Notes: generated by a model not told the origin, from the letters alone. DNA of 64,000 nt from an uncultured delta proteobacterium (GCA_963699755.1 CAVOVB010000001.1:1856001-1920000), one strand, 5' to 3'; shown: positions 29,257 through 42,865, numbered from the stretch's first letter. Numbers and translations: made by a program.

Positions 29257-30437
29257 ATGGCTGAGTCACGACATCCCGATTGGGAGCCGATCACCGCGTA
29301 CGTCGCCGACATGTCGTATTTCAGCGGCAAGATGGAAGCGTACCTTCGCTACAAGGAGATTCCGTACGAGCGACGGGTCGTCGACATGAAGGTCATGCGC
29401 GACGAGATCCTCCCGGCGACCGGCCTCATGAAGGTGCCGGTGCTCCGCTTGGCCAACGGGCAGTGGCTCAAAGACACGACGCCGATGATCGACTGGCTCG
29501 AGTCGGCGTACCCGGAGTCACCGGTGATTCCCCGGTACCCGTCCTCCGCTTCATGTCGAAGCTGGTCGAAGATTACGCCGACGAATGGTGCTGGCGGGCG
29601 GCGCTCTATTGGCGCTGGCAGCCGGTCGAATCTCGAAAGCTTCTCATGCATCGCATTGGGCACGAGGTGCTCGCCGATTTCCCGGCGCCCAAGTGGCTCG
29701 CCGGCTGGTACTACGGGCGCCGACAGATGGCGACCTACTTGCGAGGGGACGGAGTGAGCCCCGAAACCGCGCCGCAGGTTAAGCGACAGTACCTCGACCT
29801 GCTCGACGCCATGAGCGAGCTTCTCGAGGAACAGCCGTATCTGCTCGGTAGCCATCCGACACTCGTCGACATCGGTTTGTTCGGGCCGATGTTTCGGCAC
29901 TACGCGCAGGACCCTACGCCGAGCCGCGTGATGGAAGAGCGAGCACCTGCGGTTTACGCATGGGTGGGCGGCTGTGGAACGCGCGGGCGCATCGACTTGG
30001 GCGAGAGCCCATCCTCAGCGATTTTTCACAGCCGGGTTGGGAATACTTCCTTCGCGAGATCGCGCAGAGCTACTGGCCTTTCCTCGTGCGGAACGCGCGC
30101 GCTTGGGCAGTCGGGGAAGCACGGGTCGACCACCAAGCGCACGGCGTCACCTATCGCAAGCTCAAGGTCGTTCACTATCGCGTCTATTGCCTCGAAGTTC
30201 TTCAAAACGAGTATCGGCGTCTCAGCGAGCCCAATCGGAAGGCGGTCGACGAATTGCTGCGGCCCTACGGCTCGATCGGAGCTCGTCGACGGGCTCGACT
30301 CGGGGCTCATCGAGGAGCATCAGTTGCCGCTGCGACCCAATCGCGTCCAGCCTTCCAGGCTCATGCGAATGAAGCTGGCGCTCATGGGCACTCCATGGGA
30401 CATGCCGGTCACACCGAAGGAAAGAGAGAAAGCATGA
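29257..30437 (+). CDS. Glutathione S-transferase family protein (frameshifted)
   Basis: SYFSGKMEAYLRYKEIP, KVPV, DTTPMI, EDYADEW and YLLGSHPTLVDIGLFGP. Confidence 0.82.
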
Positions 30438-32147
30438 CGGACAAGGATTCCTTCACTCCGAACTGGTTCGAGGGGGCGCTTCCCAAGCGTTCGTATCGTT
30501 CGGCGTTCAAGTGGGGAGCGCCGGAGGCCTACAAGCACCCGAATCCGCGGCTCTACGCTTTGATGAAGGAGACCTTCGGACTCGATGACGCGTACTTCGA
30601 AAAGCCGCAGAATCTTGGCCTCGACGAGGTGACGGCGGACTCTTCGATTTCGCTCAGCTCCGAGCAGGTCAGCTTCTTTCGCCGCCTGCTGGGCGACGAA
30701 AACGTGAACGACGACGTCTACTCGAGGCTCCGCGTCTCGTACGGTAAAACGATGATCGACGCGCTTCGGCTGCGCGACCACGAGGTCGAAAATCTCCCTG
30801 ATTTGGTGCTTCACCCGCGCGACCGCGACGATGTCGAGCAAATCGTTCGCTACTGCCACGAGCAGGAAATTCCTCTCTATACCTACGCCGCCGGCTCGAG
30901 CGTGACACGTGGCACCGAGTGCGTGCGAGCCGGGGTTTCGATCCATCTCGGCACGCACATGAAACGCGTCCTGTCCCTCAACGTCGTCAATCAAACGGTC
31001 ACGGTGGAGCCTGGTATTCTCGGTCCGGATCTCGAAGCAGCCCTCAACGGTGCCCGTGAGGGTTTCAACGCGCCGCACGCGTATACCTGCGGTCATTTTC
31101 CGCAGTCGTTCGAGTTCTCGTCGGCAGGTGGCTGGGTGGTGACGCGCGGCGCAGGGCAGAACTCCACGTACTACGGCAAGGCGGAAGATCTGGTGCTGAG
31201 TCAGGAGTACATCACGCCCGTTGGCGCCATCGAAACCGTCGACGTCCCTGCATATTCGACCGGACCCAACCTCGATCAGATCATGATCGGAAGCGAAGGA
31301 GCGTACGGGATCTTGGTGGCGGTGACCTTGAAAGTCTTTCGCTATCAGCCCGAGAACACGCGCCGCTTCAGCTTCATCTTTCCGGATTGGAAGAGCGGGA
31401 CGGCCGCGGTGCGCGAGATCATGCAGGGTGAGTTTGGTGTTCCATCCGTCTTCCGATTGTCCGATCCGGAGGAAACCGACGTTGCCTTCAAGCTCTATGG
31501 GGTCGAGGGCACGCCGATCGACACGCTCGTCAGTCTGCGAGGTTTCAAAAAGGGCGAGCGTTGTCTGATGCTCGGAACCGTCGACGGAGACCGCGCCTAC
31601 ACGGCAATGGTCAAACGGCGCCTTCGCCAGGTCTGCAACGCGCATGGCGGGATGTACACCACCGGATTCATCACCAAGAAGTGGGAGCACGGTCGTTTTG
31701 CCGATCCGTACATGCGCGAGGACCTGCAGGACTACGGCATTCTCATCGACACCCTCGAGTGCGCCACCAACTGGGAGGAGCTCCCGAAAGTGCACGAGCA
31801 CGTCCGGGCGTACGTGAAGAGCCGACCGCAGACGGTCTGTATGACGCACATGTCCCACTGCTACCCGCAGGGCGCGAATCTATACTTCATCTTCATCGCG
31901 AAGATGGGTCACCAGGAGTTCCTGGAGTTTCACCGTGGCATCCTCGATGCCGTCCAGGCTTCCGGCGCAACCATGAGCCATCATCATGGCATCGGAAAGA
32001 TGACCGCGCCCTGGCTGGAAGGCCAGATCGGACGTAATGAGCTCGCGGTGTTTCGGGCCCTCAAGCGGCACTTCGATCCCCGAAACGTGCTCAACCCAGG
32101 CGGCACCCTCGCGCTCGATCTGCCGGATGACCAACGCCGCTGCCTGA
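30434..32147 (+). CDS. FAD-binding oxidoreductase, alkylglycerone-phosphate synthase-like
   Basis: GSSVT, GHFPQSFEFSS.GGW, GSEGAYG, HMSHCYPQGANLYF, SHHHGIGK and FDPRNVLNPG. The natural stop seems lost to an indel, so the end is approximate. Confidence 0.85.
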
Positions 32148-32215
32148 GCGCCGCCATTGGAAAATTGTGCCGGCGATCGACAGCACGGGTTACGCAGGAC
32201 CCTCTAAATCCTCCG

Positions 32216-33020
32216 ATGAGCTTACGAAGTGTCGTCGGCAGCTCCCTCGGAACAGTGCTGGTCTTCATGACTGGCATGGGCTGCGCGTCCAAGTCTTGTC
32301 CCCCATGCGACGCGGCAGCCGTGTCTGCCAAGAAGTCCGAGGGCTCGGGCGGTGAGTCGGCCTCTGGGGTGTACTACGCGCTACCCGGCCTGGAGCATGG
32401 ACTACTCCAGTCCCCGGTGAACATCCTTTCCGGCGAGGCCGAAGACGGGCGCCACACTATCCATTTCAGTGTTGGAGATGGTGCAGACCAGGTACAGAAT
32501 CTCGGACACACCGTGCAGCTCGACTTCCGGAGGGGCATCACGACGGAGTTCGATGGCAACAGGTACGAGTTCATGCAGCTTCATTTTCACACGCCCTCCG
32601 AGCATCTCGTCGACGGAATCACCTATCCCATGGAGATGCACTTGGTGCATTCACGTCCCGGTCTTTCGTCCGATGATCCACCCAACTACTTAGTCGTGGC
32701 ACTTCTCTTCCGGATGGGGAAGCCCAATCAATTCATCGAAGAGTTCCTCGATGCAATTCCGACGCAGGAAGGCCGTTCGGCCAAGCTCGACGAGGTGTTT
32801 GTCGAGGACGTGCTTGGTTCGGGCTTGGATGTCGAGAGCATTGACTATTTTCACTACCGTGGCTCGCTGACGACACCTCCGTACACCGAATGCGTCGATT
32901 GGATGGTAGCCAAACAGATCGTCGACGCGGGGCCAGCTCAAATCCAACGGATTCACCTCGTCGAGGGCGACAACGCGCGACACATTCAACGCCTGGGTGG
33001 CCGCGACGATCGACGAGTAG
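32216..33020 (+). CDS. Alpha-class carbonic anhydrase, lipoprotein
   Basis: Lipobox-like MGC, QSPVNI, GHTVQ, QLHFHTPSEH, EMHLVH and YRGSLTTPP. The TAG at 33018 is reached after a 1-nt indel. Confidence 0.9.
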
Positions 33021-33067
33021 CAAATGTTTTTCACCGCAGATCGCATCGACTGCGCTACGCTTCGCCG

Positions 33068-33986
33068 GTGACCGACTCCGAACATAGCGCGCTGCGCGAG
33101 CGGGTTTCCGGCCGTGCCGTCGCGATCACCGGCGCTTCGAGCGGGATTGGCGAAGCGCTGGCCAATCGGTTGGGGGACGCCGGGGCAAAGGTCCTGCTCG
33201 TCGCGCGATCCGCCGACAAGCTCGAAGACATGAAGCAAGAGCATCGAGGGGCGCGGCGGAACGGCATTCGCGTATCCTGGCGACTTATCGAACGCCGAGG
33301 ACACCGAGCGTCTGATCGCTGCCATTCTTGCTGACCACGGCCAAGTCGATATCCTCGTCAACAATGCAGGAATCTCGATTCGCCGAAGTGTCGCCAAGTC
33401 GTACGATCGGGTGCACGACTTCGAGCGGACGCTCGCTCTCAATTTCTTGGGCGCGGTGCGTCTCATCATGGGATTTCTTCCGGGTATGCGCGCACAGAAG
33501 AGCGGGCAGATCCTCAACGTGTCGACGATCGGGGTCCAGGTGAACGTTCCGCGCTACGGCGCTTACATCGCGAGCAAGGCGGCGCTCGACGCGTTCAGTC
33601 GAGTCCTGGCAGTCGAAGCGCTGAAGGACGGGGTCAAGGTCACGACGATCTACATGCCATTGGTCAAGACGCCGATGATGAAATCGACGACGATTTACGA
33701 CTCGTTTCCGATGCGGAGCGCCGTAGAAGCTGCCGACCTAGTGGCGGACGGCATCGTCCATCAGCCGAAACGGGTGGCCACCCCTGTCGGAAATCTATTC
33801 GAATTCGCCTATGGGGTGGCGCCGAACGTCGTCGATCGCATTCTGAACGCCGCATACCAGCTCTACCCTGAGTCGGGTGACAAAAAGGACCAGCGCGAGC
33901 CAGCAAGCGGCGACGCCGCGATGTTTCAGCGCGTGTTCAAGGCCGTTGCGCGTCGGGCGAGACGTCGAGCGTCTGGACGACGGTAA
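33068..33986 (+). CDS. SDR oxidoreductase, fatty acyl-CoA reductase (Acr1)-like (frameshift near 33243)
   Basis: TGASSGIG, NNAGISIRR, HDFERTLALN, YIASKAALDAF and IYMPLVKTPM. Confidence 0.85.
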
Positions 33987-33997
33987 CGGGCTGGGCA

Positions 33998-35324
33998 TCA
34001 CGCTCGGTGACGCGCTCGAGCCGCCGAACGGTCTGTCCTGGAAACAGAGCCCATGATGAGGAGCGTGGCCATCAACATCGTCAGTACGGCTGCTTCACGT
34101 CTGGTCAGGTCACGTTCCCCGATGTGCCTGGAAGATCCGCTGAACAACGTGAAGAACGCTCGCATCACAGCGATCCCGTTGAGCGCCGTCGCGGCGATCA
34201 ATGCAAAGGCAAGTAGCGGGAACTCATCGACCGATCCCTGAACCAAGAGGTCTTCGGCTACGAAACCGAGCGTCAGCGGCAGGCCTACACTTGCAAAACC
34301 CATGAAGAGAAAAGCGACAGCCATGCGCGGCGTTCGGGTGAAACTCCCGCCCGGGACATTGACCGAAAGATTCCCACGCCGGGCTTCGAGAGAGGCGAGC
34401 GTCATTGCGAAGCCGGCGGTTGCCACGCCTATCACTTGCCATGTGAGCAATGCGCCAATCTGGGCAACGGGAGAGCTCGTATCCAGGCCGAAGGCCACGA
34501 GCCCTGTCTGGCTCATTATCAAGAATGCGAGCGCACGCCGCGCGTCCGTTTGTGCAATGCCGAGAGCTGCGGCGACCACCGCAGTGATCGCACCGAGAGA
34601 CGCCACGCCGTGAGCAAGTTGCGACGGGAGCTCCCCTCGGAGCAACTCGAGATGCGCATAGACGCCCAGTTGCGGTGCAAAGAACGCCACAACGAGTCCC
34701 ATGGGTGCGTATTGCACGAACGGGGGGAACCAACTGTGAAGCGGGATCACGGCTTCGCGAATTCCGATGCCGGCGAGGAGAAACACGAGCCCAACCGTGG
34801 ACTCGCCTCGACTGAGCAGCACCGCGCCGATTCCAAGCGCGACGACACTCGGCACATGATAAATGGCGAACAACCTCGCCGTACTTCGAGTTCGTCGCAT
34901 CTCTCGCAACTCGAGCCACACGATGAGCGCCGAAGCGCCCCAGAGGACGGCAAGCCCGATCGGATGGCGAATGACCAGGAAGACCAACGCGATCGCGATG
35001 AGAAGCAAAATCCTCGCGAATGTCTTTGGACGCGTTCCACGAATTGGACTGAGGACGATCGCGGCATAGCCGATCAGGCAGGTAATCAAGGAGAATGCGG
35101 GAGCCCAGGAGTGCGGGTCCTCCATCGCGACCCAGTCGGCGGATCGCTCGAGCATGGGAGCTCCTGAGTACGCGCCAGCTGACGTGGGTGAGCGCAAGCA
35201 AGCCGGTGAGACCCATCGCGTAGCTAGCGCGGTGACGGGCTGTTCGTGACGAGGGCGAGCGCGCGACGAACCAGGCCATGGGGAGGAGAAGAAGGAGTTG
35301 CAGAGCCGCAAATACGAGTGTCAT
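33998..35324 (-). CDS. Proton-conducting membrane subunit (NuoL/M/N-Mrp superfamily), last gene of the DAB operon (frameshifted near 35170)
   Basis: IREAVIPLHSWFP, ARRALAFLIMSQTG and FASVGLPLTLGFVAEDLL; ATGA overlap with dabB. Confidence 0.82.
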
Positions 35325-36688
35325 GACGTGACCTCGTCCCGCTGCTGACGTGACTTCTTGGCCGGTGTTGGTTTCGTGAGATAGTCAACCCAGGCCCGGT
35401 CCAGTCGATCCAGCCACGAGAGCACGGCCAGCGCTCGCCCAATGACGTGGTCCTTGAGAAAAGCGTCGAAGCCCCCGCGCTCTAGAGCGACGCGATAGAG
35501 CCAGGGCTGCAGTGCCGTCGGCACCAGGCGTTCGAGATGTCCGCCGGTTCGGGGGAGCTGCTTTCCCATCGCTTGTTCGAGATGATGGTAGTCGTGAAGG
35601 AGACTCGGCGAACGGAGGATCTGGAGCGTTCGAATGGCGGCATGGCCGACGATATGGGCCACGGCGAGGTGGTAGAAGCCAAGGCCGATCTCCACGTAGA
35701 TCAGCCCAACTTGGGTCATCGACGCGTATGCGAGGGCGCTTTTGATGTCGCTTTGCGTGCGGCCCACGAACGTCGCGTGCAGCGCCGTGAGCGCTCCCAC
35801 GGCGACTACCGAGCCCGCTGCGACCCCGGAGAACTCGAGAATCGATGTGGCGCGAAGCAGGAGATAGGGCCCGAGATGAATGGAGAGCGCCCCATAAAAG
35901 ACGGCGCTCGAAGGAGTGGGACCTTCCATCGCACGGGGCAGCCATCCGGACAGGGGCACTTGGGCCGCTTTGCCCATCGACGCCCAGAGAAGGAGCAAGC
36001 CGACCACGGTCGCCCCGAGCACGGTGTCCGGAACGACGAAGCTCGCCCATGGACCCGTCGGGGAAGGTACGACATCGGAGGTACCGACCATCTGGTGAAG
36101 TGCAACGGCGGCGGAGAGCAAACCGATATCACAGAGCCGATAGGTGACGAAGGCACGGAGGCCGTGCTCGACCGGCGCGCGCCTCTCGTGGAAGAACGCG
36201 ATTAAGAGAGCGGACGTCAGGCCGACGAGCTCCCATCCGATAAAGGCCAAGTCCAGGCTTCCCGCGAGGACCACGAACTCGACCGCAGCGCCAAAAATGG
36301 TCAGCAGCAGGTAGAACCGTGAGAAACCCGGCTCGCGGTGCAAATACCTCCGCGAGAATGCCGCGACGAGGCCGAGCAAAGCAGCCGAGAAGATTGCAAA
36401 CGGGATCGACAGATGATCGGCGACGAGACTCCAATCGAACGAATAGTGTTTGGCAGAGAACCAGCTGCCCAAGTGCACGCGGACTTCCGCGAAATCGCGC
36501 AGCAGAAGCCATCCCGCAGTCAGCGTAGATGAGGCTAGGGAAGCGCTGAACGCCAAACCTACGATCGTGACGGTCGCTCGCTCGCTCCAGGCTCGATCGA
36601 GCCAGGCCCGCAAGCCGAGCACGAAGACGGCGAGCATCGGAAAGCCTACGATGCCAATCACCAAGCCATCGACAAGCGTTTCCATCAT
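35321..36688 (-). CDS. dabB: DabB/MpsA-like NuoL-type membrane subunit
   Basis: GWELVGLTS, YRLCD, GKAAQVP, WLPRAMEGPTPSSA, DIKSALAYASMTQVG and HIVGHA; ATGA overlap with dabA. Confidence 0.88.
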   Translation of the reverse strand: MMETLVDGLVIGIVGFPMLAVFVLGLRAWLDRAWSERATVTIVGLAFSASLASSTLTAGWLLLRDFAEVRVHLGSWFSAKHYSFDWSLVADHLSIPFAIFSAALLGLVAAFSRRYLHREPGFSRFYLLLTIFGAAVEFVVLAGSLDLAFIGWELVGLTSALLIAFFHERRAPVEHGLRAFVTYRLCDIGLLSAAVALHQMVGTSDVVPSPTGPWASFVVPDTVLGATVVGLLLLWASMGKAAQVPLSGWLPRAMEGPTPSSAVFYGALSIHLGPYLLLRATSILEFSGVAAGSVVAVGALTALHATFVGRTQSDIKSALAYASMTQVGLIYVEIGLGFYHLAVAHIVGHAAIRTLQILRSPSLLHDYHHLEQAMGKQLPRTGGHLERLVPTALQPWLYRVALERGGFDAFLKDHVIGRALAVLSWLDRLDRAWVDYLTKPTPAKKSRQQRDEVTS

Positions 36689-39666
36689 GCCGCACCGTAT
36701 TCGAGCAACCCGGCCTTGACGTGGGCCGGGCTCAAATGCCCTCGCCGGCCGGAGTAGAAGTCGACGGAACGGCCGACTACGGCGATGGCGGGATTTTCCG
36801 GAACATACGGCTGAAATCGCCGATTCTCGTAGACCGCCACGGCGTCGCTTCTTGGGTCCCAAGCGACCAGTTGGATCCACTCGTTGTTCACCAAGTTCGC
36901 AAGTGCCGAGTCGCGTTCGAGAATGCGCACCAACTCCTCGGTTTCCGCCTCGACGATCGTGAGTAGCCGAACCGGCTCGTGGATCTCCACCATTTGCCAA
37001 GGGAGACCCGTTCTCAAGTCCGATGCGTGCCCATCCATCACACCGACGAGCCCGACGATGTTGTGGGGAAGCTTGGTCCCGCAACCGTAGCCCGTGGGAT
37101 CGACGAAGCTGAAGTAATATTCCAGGTTGATCCCGGCGCCGACCGGTCCAACCGAGCGAAGGAGCTGAGCCAGAATCGCCCCGGTCGAGTCGCTCTCGGG
37201 ATCATACGACACGAGAAAGGCCCGCCGATCTAGAAACAACCCACGTGTCCGTGCACGGCGGCCCACGATGCAAACGGCGTTGGTTGCATGCCCATACTCG
37301 GGCCTTGGCTGCGCGAGATCGTAGGCGTGCGCCTCGGCGTGTGCCAGCGCTGCCTCGGGATCCAGACCCAGGGGCGCTGACTCGAAACGGCGACAGCGCT
37401 CGTGCGCATCAAGTCGGCAGGCGTCTGCAAACGCGCGCTTCGCGTCCGCCAGCGCCTCCAGCGACTCTGCCGGGACCCGATCTTCTTCGTAGTACGTCAT
37501 CGAGTCGTCGCAGGTGTTGTGATATGCGCCGACGAACCAGGTCGAATCAGGGATGACGAGTCCTCTGCTTCGAAGCCGTTCTCGAACCCGTGGTTCATTG
37601 GCCATCTCAGCGAAGGCACGCGCGTTGGGGCCCCCGCGTCCCCCACCCGTCGCACCGCAGTCGTGTGCCGCTTCGTGAGGGTTGTTGAGACTCGAGGAGC
37701 CATGCCCGACGATCAGGACCAGCGACGACAACTGTCCCGCCATCCCCATCGTCGTAAGTGCTCCGGACACGACATCCGCCATTTCATCGATCGTGTAGCC
37801 CAACGCGAGCCCGTCGGGTCGCTCGCCTGGAGCGCGTTCGAGGCACAAGCGCGTCGGAGGCATGGGTGCTGTCCTGTGCGAGATCCTGTGCGCTAGACGC
37901 TCCGTGGCGCGAGGAAACAGGCTCCTCCCAAGAAGTGGGATGATCGCCAAGAATCCGAACAAGGCAGAGAGGACCCCGCCGCGGGTCAGCATTTTGCTTC
38001 CGAGTCCGATCGAGTGAGTCATTTGTCCTCGTCTGCGACGCTTCTCGGCAAACACGGCAGCTTCGCCCTCGTCGAGGGCGCGTTCCCTGACGTAGTGGCT
38101 TGGGAGAACGGCCACAGGGCATAGCGGCCTCGGACGAATGTCCTCGATGCCCTGATACGCCATCGCGATGCCAAAGAAGCCCGCGTATCCGAAGGTCTCG
38201 ACGTCCGGCCGAATCTCTTCGAGGTGCCTGCGAAGCGACTCCTCGCGATCGTCGATACAGAATACGGCTTGAAAGCGAGGTTGTGCCGCTTGCCTGCGTT
38301 TGAATCGGCAGTGACCCACGATTCCGTCGAGCACCCCGATGCGGTGCCTTCTTTCATACGCGAGGTGCAAGAGCCGGCGCCGTTCGTTCGAATCGAATCC
38401 GCCGACCTCTTCGAGCCAGCGCTTCGCTGCTTCCCGTCCTCCAAGCTCCGCCGGCCCGAGTCCGGCGAGCTGGGCCGTGATGAAGCCTTCGTAGACGAGC
38501 TCGAGATCGAGGTCGCTCTCTCGTTTGGCGTCCGTCCGAAGCGATAGCATCTCAGCGAACGCGTCCGGCCCACCAGCCCGTGTTCGAATGACGAAGCGAG
38601 CGGCGTGCAGGTCGAGGCTGAGCTGCAGCGCGAGGTAGTCGAGGAGTCGGGCGCGGGGAGGGTCGACGGGCGCCGTGTCGGGACGCAGCTCCAGCTGCCG
38701 AATCATGCCCGCCCAACCTGGAAGCGACAACAGGGTCTCTTCGATGTACCCAGCCCATTGCGCGTGGGGGACATCGAGCTCTTCCAGTGCCCAGCGCACC
38801 GTCCGGTCTGCGTCCCATCGCTCGCTTTGCTGGAGTCTCAGCTGCTTTGAAAGCCCTTCCATCCAGCGATCGGAAGGACCCGACCCGATTCCGTAGAGAG
38901 AGCGGAAGACTTCGAGCAAACCCGCATCTCGTCCCGGCATCTCCCAATACGCGATCCCCTGATCGACGAAAGCGGCGCAGACACGAATCAGAAGGGGGTG
39001 GACGAAGTGATCGGTATCAATGCCGCAGACTTCGAGGATCTGGTCGCGCCGCCTGATGCCGGTGCGGGCGCGGGGGGAGGTCGGAGCGACGGCGAGCAGC
39101 TCCCTCCAGATCTGCTCGAGGGCCTGCTCTTCACGCGCCTCTGGCGTGCTGGAGTTCCCGCCGAGGGAGACACGCTCGGCGGACTGAAGGATCGCAGCCC
39201 GGGCCGACTCCGGCACGCGACGGTGGAAGCGAAACAGCGTCCCCGTCTCTTCGAGCATCCAGTTGAGCGCAGGACCCTGTGGGATCTCGAAGAGATTGCT
39301 CAGACGTATGGCCCGCATCTCCCGTCGCGTCGGCCCTCCGGCTATCACAGGGCCTCCTGAGTCCTCGATGGACGCGTTGACTACGTTTTCAATGTCGGCC
39401 GAACGAATTCTCGCCGACTCGATGCACTCGTCGAAGGCTGCTTCGGACTGGTAAGGCTCGGTACCGAAGCGCGCAGCGGCCTCGACGACGGCTTCTTCGA
39501 AGTGAAGGTGCTCAAAGGCATGCAAGGTGTTGTGATGAACGAACATATGCAGCGGAGACTGCTGAGGAAGCAGGTGCGCTGCGTGGTCGAGCAGCTCACC
39601 AAGCGTCGCGTTCGCAGTCGATTTCGAGCTGGACAGGCTGAGAGACTCGCTTGCAACGGAGGTCAT
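36685..39666 (-). CDS. dabA: DabA/MpsB (DUF2309) inorganic-carbon transporter soluble subunit
   Basis: FVHHNTL, FCIDDREES.RR, GHGSSSLNNPHEAAHDCG, AQPRPEYGHA, INLEYYFS and HEPVRL; ATGA overlap with sulP. Confidence 0.93.
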   Translation of the reverse strand: MTSVASESLSLSSSKSTANATLGELLDHAAHLLPQQSPLHMFVHHNTLHAFEHLHFEEAVVEAAARFGTEPYQSEAAFDECIESARIRSADIENVVNASIEDSGGPVIAGGPTRREMRAIRLSNLFEIPQGPALNWMLEETGTLFRFHRRVPESARAAILQSAERVSLGGNSSTPEAREEQALEQIWRELLAVAPTSPRARTGIRRRDQILEVCGIDTDHFVHPLLIRVCAAFVDQGIAYWEMPGRDAGLLEVFRSLYGIGSGPSDRWMEGLSKQLRLQQSERWDADRTVRWALEELDVPHAQWAGYIEETLLSLPGWAGMIRQLELRPDTAPVDPPRARLLDYLALQLSLDLHAARFVIRTRAGGPDAFAEMLSLRTDAKRESDLDLELVYEGFITAQLAGLGPAELGGREAAKRWLEEVGGFDSNERRRLLHLAYERRHRIGVLDGIVGHCRFKRRQAAQPRFQAVFCIDDREESLRRHLEEIRPDVETFGYAGFFGIAMAYQGIEDIRPRPLCPVAVLPSHYVRERALDEGEAAVFAEKRRRRGQMTHSIGLGSKMLTRGGVLSALFGFLAIIPLLGRSLFPRATERLAHRISHRTAPMPPTRLCLERAPGERPDGLALGYTIDEMADVVSGALTTMGMAGQLSSLVLIVGHGSSSLNNPHEAAHDCGATGGGRGGPNARAFAEMANEPRVRERLRSRGLVIPDSTWFVGAYHNTCDDSMTYYEEDRVPAESLEALADAKRAFADACRLDAHERCRRFESAPLGLDPEAALAHAEAHAYDLAQPRPEYGHATNAVCIVGRRARTRGLFLDRRAFLVSYDPESDSTGAILAQLLRSVGPVGAGINLEYYFSFVDPTGYGCGTKLPHNIVGLVGVMDGHASDLRTGLPWQMVEIHEPVRLLTIVEAETEELVRILERDSALANLVNNEWIQLVAWDPRSDAVAVYENRRFQPYVPENPAIAVVGRSVDFYSGRRGHLSPAHVKAGLLEYGAA

Positions 39667-41264
39667 GAAGCGGTCCTTCGACGGGTTGAGTGCGGATGCG
39701 GCGAATGCGGCGTCAGTGCCTCGATCCCCACCACCTCCAATTCCACATTCGGCCACTCGTTGGATAGACCCTCGAGGCGACTCAAGAACGTATGGTCAAC
39801 GATCGCGGCGTCGGTCACATCGATCACCACTTTCCGGCAGGAAGGATCGAGATCCGCGAGGGACTTCCTGACCGAGATGAGGCTCGTGAAAGCCGCTGCA
39901 CCGTGCAGCGTCAAGCGCAATTCGGAGCCTTGCTGACTCTTCTCGACGCGCGCACGGAAGATCTGGCTGAAAGTCGCCCCGCGGACGCGGTGCAAAATGA
40001 CCTTGAGCACGAGGCCGGCTGCGACGCCAATTAGAAGGTCGGTCGCGAGAGTGATGATGAGTGTAGTGACGAAGAGGGCGAGCTGATCCAGACCGATCTG
40101 TTTGACGTGCCACAGCTCACGGGGTGATGCGAGTCGTGCGCCGGTGTAGACCAGCATTGCCGCCAAGGCCGCGAGCGGAATTTCGTGCAGCAAGCCGGGA
40201 GCCAGAGCGACGAATGTCAGCAGAAATGCGCCATGAAAAAAGTTCGCCCATCGGGACTGCGCGCCAGCATCGACGTTCGCTTTGCTTCGAACGATCTCGG
40301 AAATCATCGGAAGCCCGCCGACCAGAGACGAACAGAGGTTCCCCAAAGAAAGAGCCAGGAGATCGCGATTCAGATTCGACGGGCGCTTCTCCGGGTCCAT
40401 CGAGTCGACTGCGAGCACGCTCAAGGTCGACTCGATCGTTCCGACCAGGGCGAACATCACTACGTATTTCAGGGACGCGGCACTGAACACCATCGAAAAA
40501 TCCGGGAATACGAACGCGTCGAGGAGCGAGCCCGGTAGTTGCACCAGGAACTCCGGCCCAACGTGGAACTGGTGCGATAGAAACTGATAGGCGTGCGAGT
40601 GGTCCAAATTGAGCCACAAGCTCAGTGGCACTGCCACCGCGAGGACCAGCACCGGAGCCGGGATGGCTTTTGCCCATCGCGTCCGAATCAGAGGCCATCC
40701 AAAAAGGATGAGTAGCGAGAGAGCACCAAGGATCAGTATCTCGGGATTGGCATGCGCGATGCTCTTCGGAATTTCGGCGAGCAACTCCAATGGTTCCTTG
40801 GCCTCCGGCGCTACGCCCAACAGGGTGTGCACTTGCTTCGAGATGATGATCACACCGATGGCGGCCAACATGCCGTGGACCACAGAGGGAGACATCGCTA
40901 CGCCGATCGAGGCGGCGCCAAGGAGGGCGAACGCAATTTGCACGCCTGCCGCGACCGTCCCGACCGCTAGGGCTCGACGGTAGCCGAGCATCGGATCTCC
41001 TCCCCCAAGCTCTTGTACCGCCCCCAATGCGATGACGATGAGTCCGGCCGCGGGCCCCTTGATCGTCAGGCGTGCGCTACCGAGAAACGTGACGATGACC
41101 CCTCCGATGATCGCGGTCAGAACGCCCGCGATCGGGGGGAATCCACTGGCCATCGCGATCCCCAGGGAGAGGGGAAGGGCGATCAGGAAAACTAAGAAAC
41201 CTGCCTTCAAATCGGCAACTGGGAACGGGCTGCGTGGCCCTTCCTTCGATACAACATTCGACAT
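39663..41264 (-). CDS. SulP/SLC26 anion (probably bicarbonate) transporter with STAS-like C-terminus
   Basis: ALPLSLGIAMASG, GPAAGL, PMISEIVRS and IPLAALAAML. Confidence 0.92.
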   Translation of the reverse strand: MSNVVSKEGPRSPFPVADLKAGFLVFLIALPLSLGIAMASGFPPIAGVLTAIIGGVIVTFLGSARLTIKGPAAGLIVIALGAVQELGGGDPMLGYRRALAVGTVAAGVQIAFALLGAASIGVAMSPSVVHGMLAAIGVIIISKQVHTLLGVAPEAKEPLELLAEIPKSIAHANPEILILGALSLLILFGWPLIRTRWAKAIPAPVLVLAVAVPLSLWLNLDHSHAYQFLSHQFHVGPEFLVQLPGSLLDAFVFPDFSMVFSAASLKYVVMFALVGTIESTLSVLAVDSMDPEKRPSNLNRDLLALSLGNLCSSLVGGLPMISEIVRSKANVDAGAQSRWANFFHGAFLLTFVALAPGLLHEIPLAALAAMLVYTGARLASPRELWHVKQIGLDQLALFVTTLIITLATDLLIGVAAGLVLKVILHRVRGATFSQIFRARVEKSQQGSELRLTLHGAAAFTSLISVRKSLADLDPSCRKVVIDVTDAAIVDHTFLSRLEGLSNEWPNVELEVVGIEALTPHSPHPHSTRRRTAS

Positions 41265-41295
41265 GACAATCCGCCTTCGTGCTCAGAACACAACG

Positions 41296-41355
41296 TTGCC
41301 CCGGAGATCTGGGGCAATCACACACACGGGAGACGAAACCCTCGGGGGCTTCGTC
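41296..41355 (-). promoter_or_regulatory. Two hairpins between the leader ORF stop and sulP
   Basis: On the minus strand: GACGAAGCCC-CCGA-GGGTTTCGTC (41332-41355, overlapping the TGA stop) and TTGCCCC-N8-GGGGCAA (41296-41317). Confidence 0.65.
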
Positions 41356-41737
41356 AGCTGGAAGGCGGACCGCGAGCCGGATTCGACGAAACTAGCGATT
41401 GGCTGTCGAGCGGGGCTGAGGGGCAGCCATAGCTCGCAGGAGATTCGGGAGCCTCGAAAGATGGCGCGGCTAGGGGCTCGGAGCCAAGGTGGTCATCCTC
41501 GAGCGGGTCGATGAGCTCGTCGACGCTTGCGGCGAAGCGCACCACGGCAGAGCCCGGGTGCGCGTGAGATGGGGCTGCCGAGGGCTTCGCCTCGGCGCTC
41601 CGATCTGCCGTGAGATCGCCCTCCGCACGGGGAGAGAAACCCAGCACAGACACCAGAAGGAGCGCGGATAGCGCAATGCGCCGGCCTGGCCGACACCTCG
41701 CAACGCTCCAATCCAGCACCGGTTCCGTGACCATCAC
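41354..41737 (-). CDS. Putative leader/arrest peptide with signal sequence and C-terminal RGPP
   Basis: RRIALSALLLVSVLGFSPRAEG, a low-complexity linker and ...NPARGPPSS*; ends 89 nt before sulP. The start codon is uncertain. Confidence 0.65.
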   Translation of the reverse strand: MMVTEPVLDWSVARCRPGRRIALSALLLVSVLGFSPRAEGDLTADRSAEAKPSAAPSHAHPGSAVVRFAASVDELIDPLEDDHLGSEPLAAPSFEAPESPASYGCPSAPLDSQSLVSSNPARGPPSS

Positions 41738-41863
41738 AGCCTCTCAACCCCCTGGACGGTAGAGTATTCCGTCAAAGTTCGGGGCGTGCAAGAAGGGCGC
41801 GGCGGACAGCCTGGTGCACCCCACGCTGGACGCGGGCGGCCAGGTCCGGGTATATGCCGTTCC

Positions 41864-42865
41864 GTGAACCGAGGTTTCGCGTTTGTCGTACTTCTGGCGG
41901 TCGTCCTCGTGGGGTTGCCAGGTAGCGTCCCGAGCAGTCGCGCCGAAGAGGCCGTCACCTTCCGTATTGCCTCCCTCGCGCCTGCCGGCTCGTCGTGGAT
42001 GAAGGTCCTCAACGCCTGGAAGAAGACTCTCGAAAGCGAGACGGAAGGTCGGTTGAAGCTGCGTTTCTACCCGGGCGGCGCGCAAGGCGATGAGCGTGAC
42101 TTCGTTCGAAAGATGCGCGTGGGGCAGCTCGACGGCGGCGTCGTCACGATGACCGGAATGAGCATGCTTGTGAGGCCAATGGTGATCTTGGTCCTGCCGA
42201 ACTTCCTCGATACCTACGAGAAGCTGGACCGAGTGCGAACCAAGATGGCCGCGGACTTCGAGAAGCTCTTCGACGACGAAGGCTTCATGATGTTGGCCTG
42301 GGGAGACGCGGGAAAGACGCGGCTCTTTTCACAAAAGGCGATCGAAAAGCCCTCGGACATCAAGTCGATGCGACCATGGATGTGGAAAGACGACCTGGTT
42401 TTCATCGAGTTCTACGACGTGATCGGAGCCAATGGCGTTCGACTGGGCGTAAACGAAGTGTACCCCGGGCTTCAGACCAAGATGGTCGACGTGGTGACGT
42501 CTTCCGCGCTCACGGCGGTTGCACTTCAGTGGTACACGCGCGTCAAGTACATGACGGCTCACAACTCGGCGATCATCGCGGGTGGCATGGTGATGCGTAA
42601 AGAGAAGGTCAACGCGCTTCCGGCCGACCTCAAGGCAACGTTCTTGCGGACCTGCGAGCGCGTTGAGGTCTTGCTCAGCAAGACGATTCGCCGCGACGAC
42701 CAGAAGGCCTACGATGTCGTCCTCACCAAGGGGATCACTGCGACCGATACGAGCCAGTACAAGGCCGAGTGGGACGCAGCGGCCAAAAAAGTGCGGGACC
42801 GAATGACGGGGCGCGTCTTTCCAAAGAGCTTGCTTCAGGCGGTCGAAGCGGCCGCGGCCGAATAG
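41864..42865 (+). CDS. dctP: TRAP transporter substrate-binding protein DctP
   Basis: IASLAPAGSSW, FYPGGAQGDE, KMRVGQLDG and VYPGLQT. Confidence 0.88.
   Translation: MNRGFAFVVLLAVVLVGLPGSVPSSRAEEAVTFRIASLAPAGSSWMKVLNAWKKTLESETEGRLKLRFYPGGAQGDERDFVRKMRVGQLDGGVVTMTGMSMLVRPMVILVLPNFLDTYEKLDRVRTKMAADFEKLFDDEGFMMLAWGDAGKTRLFSQKAIEKPSDIKSMRPWMWKDDLVFIEFYDVIGANGVRLGVNEVYPGLQTKMVDVVTSSALTAVALQWYTRVKYMTAHNSAIIAGGMVMRKEKVNALPADLKATFLRTCERVEVLLSKTIRRDDQKAYDVVLTKGITATDTSQYKAEWDAAAKKVRDRMTGRVFPKSLLQAVEAAAAE

Follow-up and report, generated by a model that had tools for sequence, protein, structure and literature searches.

A candidate membrane-targeted RGPP arrest leader with a motif-anchored acidic patch ahead of a sulP-dabA-dabB operon

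How might translation of a SulP/DAB inorganic-carbon operon be controlled? The question is raised by a 64,000-nucleotide stretch of DNA (hereafter the window; G000:C1:1856001-1920000, G000 being the assembly that holds it) from an uncultured delta proteobacterium, on whose minus strand sulP, dabA, dabB and a NuoM-like gene lie in that order, joined by ATGA overlaps, downstream of a short open reading frame (Table 1). A first-pass annotation, made from the sequence alone, had read this frame as a leader peptide that arrests its ribosome at an RGPP motif and, together with two hairpins, gates the operon. As an overall reading we tentatively propose that a 126-residue, membrane-targeted, RGPP-stalling leader frees the sulP ribosome-binding site, and that the membrane potential, acting on an acidic patch in the nascent chain, pulls the stall loose.

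Table 1. Features of the leader region and the operon, in coordinates of the window
Feature	Position	Strand	Remarks	Family model
Putative -35 box TTGCAC	41786..41791	(-)	TTGC at matching spacing in orthologues, by eye	
Putative -10 box AATACT	41763..41768	(-)	17 nt after the -35 box; GGAATACT in 13/14 orthologues	
Leader Shine-Dalgarno-like GAGAGG	41740..41745	(-)	5 nt before ATG 41734; kept loosely in orthologues	
Leader ORF	41354..41734	(-)	126 aa plus TGA; ATG 41734 start; GTG 41737 one codon earlier	
Hydrophobic H-region	41633..41677	(-)	residues 20-34 after basic N-region; signal peptide or signal anchor	
Acidic patch DELIDPLEDD	41492..41521	(-)	residues 72-81; 44-53 residues from last Pro of RGPP	
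RGPP arrest-type motif	41363..41374	(-)	residues 121-124, two residues before the stop	
Anti-Shine-Dalgarno GUCCGCCUUC	41361..41370	(-)	within the Gly-Pro-Pro-Ser codons	
Hairpin 1	41332..41355	(-)	10 bp, 41355-41346 with 41341-41332; starts inside the stop codon; no U-tract after	
Hairpin 2	41296..41317	(-)	7 bp, 41317-41311 with 41302-41296	
Small third hairpin	41279..41291	(-)	5 bp, weakly kept; 85.7% paired, no double change	
sulP ribosome-binding site GAAGGCGGAU	41269..41278	(-)		
sulP	39663..41264	(-)	SulP-family anion transporter, 533 aa	PF00916
dabA	36685..39666	(-)	ATGA overlap with sulP	PF10070
dabB	35321..36688	(-)	NuoL/MrpA-like subunit; ATGA overlap with dabA	PF00361, PF00662
Fourth gene, NuoM-like	33998..35324	(-)	apparent frameshifts break the frame in the window assembly	PF00361

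The leader gene and the loci that carry it

When the leader is compared with its orthologues, its frame is free of stops over the last 125 codons in 14/14 of them, against 0, 1, 0, 2 and 2 of 14 for the other five frames, and third codon positions are the least conserved in 6/6 pairwise comparisons. The leader is therefore a coding sequence, and almost certainly a real gene. The frame of about 127 codons described at first is indeed open (41354-41737, minus strand), ends in NPARGPPSS-stop and contains SHAH and DDH, but the likelier start is its second codon, which gives 126 residues; a start codon lies exactly 126 codons ahead of the stop in 11/16 orthologous loci. Upstream of the leader, 13/14 orthologues have GGAATACT, and a TTGC precedes the last six bases of this sequence by about 17 nt, so that the two form a putative conserved promoter-like pair; a sigma-70 consensus scan did not call the leader promoter, its -35 box included. 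The leader diverges fast, at 17-65% identity to the window leader compared with 70-94% for SulP. No Pfam or NCBIfam family matches it, none of 15 leader members matches PF11162 (DUF2946) at E <= 1, and Rfam returns no riboswitch or T-box in the leader region (best 23 bits, against gathering cut-offs of 60 and 83). A leader profile search of G000 found no third paralogue.

A-R-x-P-P is invariant in the 15 aligned leaders, and the codons for Ala, Gly and the first Pro of the motif vary synonymously, so the constraint on the motif acts on the protein. Across 37 leaders the motif reads RGPP in 21, RAPP in 15 and RSPP in one, and it stands two residues from the stop in 31. In the 2501 long ORFs of G000, RGPP occurs six times where 22.5 are expected (0.27), the lowest ratio among 10 tetrapeptides tried; a filter for a hydrophobic segment with R[AGS]PP near the stop gives six matches in the 5.35-Mb assembly, and an A[AGS]PP control filter gives none. 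The same genome has a second arrest-type leader (G000:C1:329032-329484, minus strand; L151/L176) with a signal, 17 His and RAPP, ahead of a TonB-dependent receptor, and the orthologues of this TonB-receptor leader keep H-G-x-G-S-x-A-H about 48-56 residues from the motif. Published experiments on the RAPP/RGPP class found RGPP to give the strongest and most robust arrest, and 7/7 tested Streptomyces leaders with C-terminal RAPP or RGPP stalled (PMC12992588). By analogy with this class, the leader very probably stalls its ribosome at RGPP.

A basic N-region followed by a hydrophobic helix is seen by hydropathy in all aligned orthologues. The proposed Sec-type signal thus stands as a conserved N-terminal hydrophobic segment, judged by hydropathy and a predicted helix only, but it has no conserved cleavage site and may therefore be an uncleaved anchor. 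A Tat or lipoprotein signal was considered and rejected, as the twin arginine and lipobox cysteine are not conserved. In an AlphaFold2 model of low confidence (15 sequences; pLDDT 59, pTM 0.19) the only helix spans residues 16-31, and no domain able to pull by folding is seen; about 90 residues separate the helix from the motif.

All 15 same-genus loci, the window and the co-binned L001 included, have a signal, R[GA]PP, two further residues and a stop, at a distance of 87-102 nt from sulP. Orthologous sulP-dabA loci conserve the leader's motif, length and signal as well as the hairpins, in agreement with what the first-pass annotation had expected of such a comparison. A wider search covered 401 Myxococcota genomes and 351 genomes of the phylum of a Planctomycetota locus, with a genome-contig scan (80/215 loci kept) and a metagenome scan (14 loci); among 151 genomes around a Binatia locus only that locus itself was found. 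Tallied by SulP identity over 143 non-identical loci, each with a near-complete N-terminus and no less than 500 nt of upstream sequence, a leader is present at 38/41 loci at >=62%, 2/37 at 50-61% and 0/65 below 50%, and none of 12 distant sulP paralogues (35-38% identity) has one. A quick IQ-TREE phylogeny of sulP from 123 of the 143 loci (match >=400 aa, identity >=43%) contains one clade (SH-aLRT 100) in which 32/32 rows have the leader, spanning several Myxococcota families, Planctomycetota and Pilimelia; the leaders of L047 and L130 fall outside it. The latter is an RGPP leader without an acidic patch, with a NuoM-like gene after sulP, and L131 has a leader of the same type split over two frames. 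dabA follows sulP in 29/32 leader loci with enough downstream DNA (5/37 were too short). L119 and L122 keep the leader and sulP without dabA, so the stable unit is the leader with sulP. At the Planctomycetota locus L045 (4144-4653), the leader-sulP-dabA unit comes after a beta carbonic anhydrase and a further sulP.

The SulP of the window scores below the cut-off of the sulP family model and below those of the BicA (111 of 880 bits) and DauA (159 of 614) models, and its DabA has an intact zinc-site pattern (C470-x-D472-x-R474, H655, C670). No RuBisCO match was found in G000, which has two beta-carbonic-anhydrase matches. The NuoM-like gene occupies two frames near 35170, and its end also differs from the L001 copy, which is continuous there; these breaks are probably sequencing errors. 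At 29960-33986 (plus strand) a single 1124-aa frame reads through a FAD-oxidase-like gene and an alpha carbonic anhydrase into the beginning of a short-chain dehydrogenase, which suggests frameshift errors. The alpha carbonic anhydrase (PF00194, about 32180-33040) is a close neighbour of the DAB operon, in tail-to-tail orientation; at the corresponding place in L001 it was not seen. On the other side of the leader, about 130 nt (41735-41863) separate it from a divergent dctP-like gene (PF03480; likelier start GTG near 41864), and this divergent pair is present in L001 too. Contig C7, which carries L001, matches contig C1 over about 298 kb at 83% identity with gene order preserved, and part of a sister species' genome has probably been included in the assembly (9% contamination). 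In an estuarine RNA run 7% of the words were present; RNA contigs from relatives covered 29/30 bins at low depth, operon and divergent gene alike, with strand, level and ends not distinguishable.

RNA structure around the sulP ribosome-binding site

The 10-bp hairpin at the stop codon and the second hairpin before sulP, both described in the first-pass annotation, are present and conserved in orthologues. Over 14 orthologues, hairpin 1 is paired in 100% of cells, with 7/10 pairs that never vary and a double change in 1/10; hairpin 2 is paired in 88.5% of cells and has double changes in 5/7 pairs. The 171-nt region folds with z = -2.53 (3/200 shuffles equally low). In the RNAalifold consensus of the 14 orthologues, UCCGCCU columns at the end of the leader pair with AGGCGGA, which includes the AGGCGG of the sulP site, in a helix stacked on hairpin 1. 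This consensus structure pairs in 93.7% of 334 cells, a value reached by 0/500 shuffles and compared with 39-58% for slid controls; the anti-Shine-Dalgarno helix has a double change in 0/7 pairs. In most orthologues the anti-Shine-Dalgarno is UCCGCCU, two codons further on than that of the window, where the last codon is AGC and GUCCGCCUUC pairs with GAAGGCGGAU in a shifted register. Pro124 is CCT in 13/14 orthologues, Pro123 uses all four codons, and the last codon is GCC in 13/14; the uniformity of Pro124 and of the last codon points to a constraint at the nucleotide level. For comparison, CCT makes up 17/105 of the Pro codons in sulP, dabA and dabB together.

The duplex between the footprint of the stalled ribosome and the sulP site in the window is predicted at -26.8 kcal/mol, better than all 82 control windows, and the predicted cost of opening the site falls from 15.8 to 7.1 kcal/mol when the stalled footprint is blocked. 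Among 20 close relatives the pairing probability exceeds 0.5 in 15, and 13 show an opening cost reduced by >1 kcal. A previous accessibility calculation was less favourable: its median gain was 1.5 kcal/mol, with gains above 1 kcal in 7/14, and a control ribosome placed 15 codons earlier also shifted the values. Outside the genus, opening becomes easier by >1 kcal in 6/17 and harder in none, and the duplex lies in the best tenth of controls in 1/17; support for Shine-Dalgarno masking there is thin. Pro, Ser and Ala codons by their nature complement G-rich sites, which tempers the evidence from anti-Shine-Dalgarno pairing. The idea that a terminating ribosome shuts the sulP site by freeing hairpin 1 was rejected: opening was harder than in the stalled state by >1 kcal in 4/20 relatives and easier in 2/20.

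A stall would switch sulP on, because its Shine-Dalgarno is paired with the Pro-Pro and stop codons of the leader. The arrest-leader part of the original proposal is supported by conservation, but the output is better read as Shine-Dalgarno unmasking of the SecM type than as attenuation of transcription. In this lineage the output is most likely such unmasking, with the stall as the ON state, and from these comparisons of sequence the leader probably gates sulP translation.

The acidic patch and the release of the stall

Neither SHAH nor the histidine of DDH, which had been singled out in the linker, is kept in orthologues. A single feature of the inner region is conserved, an acidic patch. 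At a distance of 41-55 residues from the last Pro, 20/20 close relatives have a net charge of -4 to -7, and the charge is <= -4 in 33/37 leaders, among them 13/17 from other lineages; the exceptions are L118 (-3), L124 (-2), L049 (-2) and L130 (+1). For the 17 outside leaders together with that of the window, the mean net charge at 41-55 is -4.56, against -1.15 +/- 0.41 in shuffles (0/5000). Since the 41-55 range was first spotted in the genus alignment, the test was repeated on the 17 alone with the interval free to fall anywhere; the scan-corrected best interval is 43-52, with 0/1000 rotations as low, and with one leader per family or phylum (10) it is 44-53 (0/1000). Quartiles of the patch centre lie 47, 48 and 49 residues from the last Pro. 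Where the centre is <=60 (16/18 leaders), its standard deviation is 2.8 residues measured from the motif and 10.4 from the signal, and its correlation with linker length is -0.02 from the motif and 0.96 from the signal. The patch is anchored to the motif, not to the signal, and so constant a distance speaks indirectly for a pause where the motif lies. As 32/34 leaders on the tree belong to one sulP clade, the statistics describe conservation and not independent invention. Outside the genus the charge is kept, and residue spacing and identity are not.

Other leader groups show where such a patch is found. Nine RAPP/RGPP leaders, taken as a control from 29 TonB-receptor loci, are His-rich; 0/9 reach -4 at 41-55, and they have a positioned acid stretch elsewhere, at 59-68 (1/1000 rotations). 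Among the source-data rows of PMC12992588 that were inspected by eye, 13 SulP leaders with C-terminal RAPP have at least five acids at 41-55 in five cases, three in three and at most two in five. Several K+/H+ and NhaD antiporter leaders in these rows have acids at 41-53, actinomycete cation:proton leaders mostly have none, quinol-oxidase leaders have a second hydrophobic segment or His/Cys, and DUF1559 leaders have CxxC/His. In a computed K+/H+ antiporter test 27/300 genomes matched, and no RxPP leader was found in the 25 loci with upstream DNA (two without upstream DNA and one from a genome flagged unpublished were excluded); an antiporter leader class therefore rests on the published rows judged by eye. 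Seven sulP leaders from Bacteroidota have a hydrophobic N-end and, 45-64 residues from the C-terminus, an acid run whose net charge is -4 to -7, with endings such as CVFRI or CSFLI in place of RxPP. Bacteroidota leaders with a hydrophobic N-end and a strong acid run lie right upstream of sulP at L054, L055, L087, L104, L108, L109, L237 and L238, and their ending, resembling L-x-x-C-x-F-x-I-stop, is a candidate second arrest motif that may act at termination.

A precedent for a pull at this distance comes from SecYEG force assays, in which, in the accessible text of the two reports, a five-Asp stretch gives a dominant potential-dependent pull at L+n of about 50 (bioRxiv 10.1101/310698; PMC6028853). 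The portions available of the preprint describe this pull as falling with indole and vanishing in simulations without potential, and Gln and Lys stretches as having no peak at L+n of about 50 (bioRxiv 10.1101/310698). In the accessible text of PMC6028853, however, release is described as raised by basic and by neutral stretches too, an effect that a simple pull by voltage leaves unexplained. The precedent concerns contiguous Asp and the SecM peptide, and its extension to a pull on RGPP arrest is by analogy. With that analogy in mind, we consider it reasonably likely that the acidic patch is the release element. It sits where acids would feel the pull of the membrane potential in SecYEG, and this position is what makes an arrest released by voltage or pH a plausible reading. 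In the list of cues suggested at first, membrane potential and pH gain support from an acidic patch at a fixed distance, but a His-based metal cue loses it; as the cue itself, membrane potential or pH is our provisional choice, drawn from the engineered case.

In the mechanism that we propose, the leader, which is under coding selection and heads sulP-dabA-dabB-nuoM-like, would halt its ribosome as others of its class do, with Pro123 in the P site and Pro124 in the A site. From folding and conservation, the stalled ribosome is predicted to cover the codons otherwise paired with GAAGGCGGAU, turning sulP ON, and the ATGA overlaps would pass translation along the operon. The geometry of the chain would place its basic N-end inside, its helix in SecYEG and residues 72-81 in the channel, where an inside-negative potential would draw the carboxylates outward. 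We hypothesize that at high potential the stall is released, termination follows two codons later, the masking helix re-forms and the operon is OFF, and that the stall lasts longer and the operon turns ON when the potential drops or when acidity outside the cell protonates the patch. The rationale would be that at low outside pH inorganic carbon is mostly CO2, the DAB substrate. Neutralophiles swap potential for a pH gradient as the outside pH drops, and carbon then shifts to CO2. In the accessible part of PMC13144422, DAB2 is inactive without membrane potential and its substrate is CO2, and DABs are described as frequent in acid-dwelling autotrophs and many heterotrophs in the portion available of PMC13684180.

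The same leader could instead be a general secretion monitor of the SecM/ApdP type, whose stall unmasks sulP and whose release reports Sec, SecDF or chaperone capacity, with the result that synthesis of the four membrane-linked proteins is confined to the vicinity of a translocon that is working or waiting; the patch would then be a spacer, or would contact basic surfaces at the tunnel exit or on SecY. Its architecture is that of SecM and ApdP (PMC10987492, in its accessible text; PMC12992588), language-model features place SecM (0.90) among the nearest named clusters, which is no more than a lead, residues of MifM outside the tunnel strengthen arrest via uL23 (PMC6037786), and a few published secD leaders have short acid runs near 45-50 by eye. 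We think this unlikely, however, given that the downstream genes are not Sec or YidC parts, and that most of the 29 published secD rows seen by eye lack a patch, whereas 33/37 sulP leaders have one at a fixed distance. It strikes us as quite improbable that a ligand or partner, be it Ca, Mg, Zn, Na or a protein, attaches to the patch on the channel or periplasmic side and thereby modulates the pull in the way that Cu acts on CruR and CutF. The D-x-x-x-D-P-x-E-D-D of close relatives resembles a cation-binding loop, DUF1559 and TonB leaders have His/Cys elements at a similar distance (by eye), and DabA requires zinc according to the accessible text of PMC13144422; yet charge alone is kept outside the genus, the low-confidence model predicts no folded domain, and among the 37 leaders His is absent in 8, Cys is absent in 7 and CxxC occurs in only 3, not including the window. 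With a median of 2 His in sulP leaders, compared with 12-17 in TonB leaders, and with His motifs that are not conserved, a metal cue sensed through His loses the support it had been given.

Two further explanations dispense with the sensor or move the output to transcription. The leader might be a constitutive pause that sets a fixed level of sulP translation, or a small exported protein with a job of its own, and pausing alone could account for the motif and the anti-Shine-Dalgarno; we regard this as very unlikely, since the mature part diverges fast yet the distance from patch to motif is fixed, and several leaderless sister-clade loci (by eye, among the rows shown) have response-regulator-like genes at the same place upstream of sulP, as if the operon needs control. 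Control of transcription termination by stalling, through Rho as in CruR or through an intrinsic terminator at hairpin 2, would fit the C-richness of the last 50 codons (C-G = +0.17 per base), which is like the CruR rut site in the accessible text of PMC9426467, and hairpin 2 does pass a loose terminator scan. Against this, the tails behind both hairpins are not U-tracts in orthologues, and a search for rho gave no match in G000 (100% complete) or in 13/13 other genomes of its order, while control genomes matched; we accordingly hold termination control to be extremely improbable here. Rho is present in 10/11 leader-bearing genomes outside the order, so this explanation may hold there. The 14 Polyangiales-order genomes searched are 91-100% complete, and rho has possibly been lost across the order.

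To return to release by voltage or pH, what pulls on RAPP leaders when the gene they precede is not a Sec gene has been posed as an open question (PMC12992588), to which this leader family offers a testable answer, namely electrophoresis of the acidic patch. If it is true, the ribosome itself would let bacteria sense membrane voltage or the pH outside, with no need of a regulator protein; this would be a first control mechanism for SulP/DAB carbon pumps in heterotrophs and would provide a compact genetic voltage reporter. More speculatively, there might be a natural class of nascent-chain voltmeters in which an acid patch in the SecYEG field is the only sensor, linking potential or outside pH to translation of SulP/DAB and other ion-homeostasis genes, and which was reached more than once with different arrest motifs (RGPP/RAPP, and a different C-terminus in Bacteroidota); we regard this wider generalization as doubtful. 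If the cue is wrong, the family would still be a well-defined candidate arrest-leader family on a carbon-uptake operon.

Relation to known carbon pumps and arrest leaders

As in DAB/MpsAB pumps, the operon of the window has DabA zinc ligands and a NuoL-like DabB. The spacing in its DabA is that of the zinc site and dyad of DabA2, given as C351/D353/R355/H524/C539 in the accessible text of PMC13144422, with Cys2His and Asp-Arg beside a PF00361 subunit. Unlike these pumps, the operon is headed by sulP and has a fourth, NuoM-like gene, and its genome gave no RuBisCO match.

Among arrest leaders, the closest class is that of RAPP/RGPP peptides (Fujiwara et al., EMBO J 2025, PMC12992588), with which the leader shares small size (126 aa, <300), an N-terminal signal, a C-terminal RGPP/RAPP and a motif conserved as protein ahead of a co-oriented gene. 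The first-pass annotation knew of no description of such a system. The main text of that paper indeed never names SulP or carbon uptake, but at least 15 of its source-data rows are RAPP leaders before SulP, including the Pilimelia leader that is our L049. SulP is absent from the top 30 RAPP groups (PMC12992588); the main text has no mention of SulP, carbonic, bicarbonate or DUF2309, and Appendix Fig. S2 and the RGPP lists may name SulP. No SulP leader was tested there, and the main sections contain no positioned acid patch that we could see. Our literature search found no paper on a leader controlling SulP, DAB or bicarbonate genes or on a natural acid-patch voltage-sensing arrest leader, and term look-ups in the accessible text of PMC9426467, PMC9973294, PMC10987492 and the LudP preprint gave no SulP, carbonic or acid-patch passage of this kind. 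The RAPP/RGPP leader class is thus already known, and what is new is the motif-anchored acid patch.

CruR of Bordetella (PMC9426467) and CutF of Rhodobacter (bioRxiv 10.1101/2025.02.05.636593) are likewise, in the available parts of these reports, exported leaders with Pro-rich arrest motifs and non-Sec targets, and CutF acts by stem-loop unmasking, as we propose here. The leader differs from these DUF2946 proteins in having no DUF2946 match, no conserved CxxC/CxxxC or His, RGPP in place of PPP, and no rho found in its genome. Every sequence feature tested places it in the RAPP/RGPP class, and it falls outside the CruR/CutF group, so far as sequence can assign it. In the engineered LepB-5D-SecM force sensors (Ismail et al. 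2015, as presented in the accessible text of bioRxiv 10.1101/310698 and PMC6028853) an acidic stretch lies about 50 residues from the arrest site in a chain undergoing export, as in the leader; these constructs are artificial, and the leader would be a natural use of the effect. The nearest published idea to voltage sensing by an acid patch, in the literature as accessible to us, is the proposal that Arg-85 of VemP feels the membrane potential in the channel (PMC11470409), with the difference that the Arg of VemP retards release, whereas the acid cluster of the window would aid it.

With SecM, VemP, ApdA and ApdP, as described in the accessible text of PMC10987492 and PMC11470409, the leader shares a signal and an arrest motif; in those systems the stalled ribosome opens a stem that hides the next Shine-Dalgarno, and pulling releases the arrest. 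The window and most close relatives have a stem of this kind overlapping the stalled footprint, a likeness that is weak outside the genus, and the targets in the window are a transporter and a CO2 pump in place of Sec or YidC components. By this analogy, the leader is likely to work as SecM does, on a non-Sec target.
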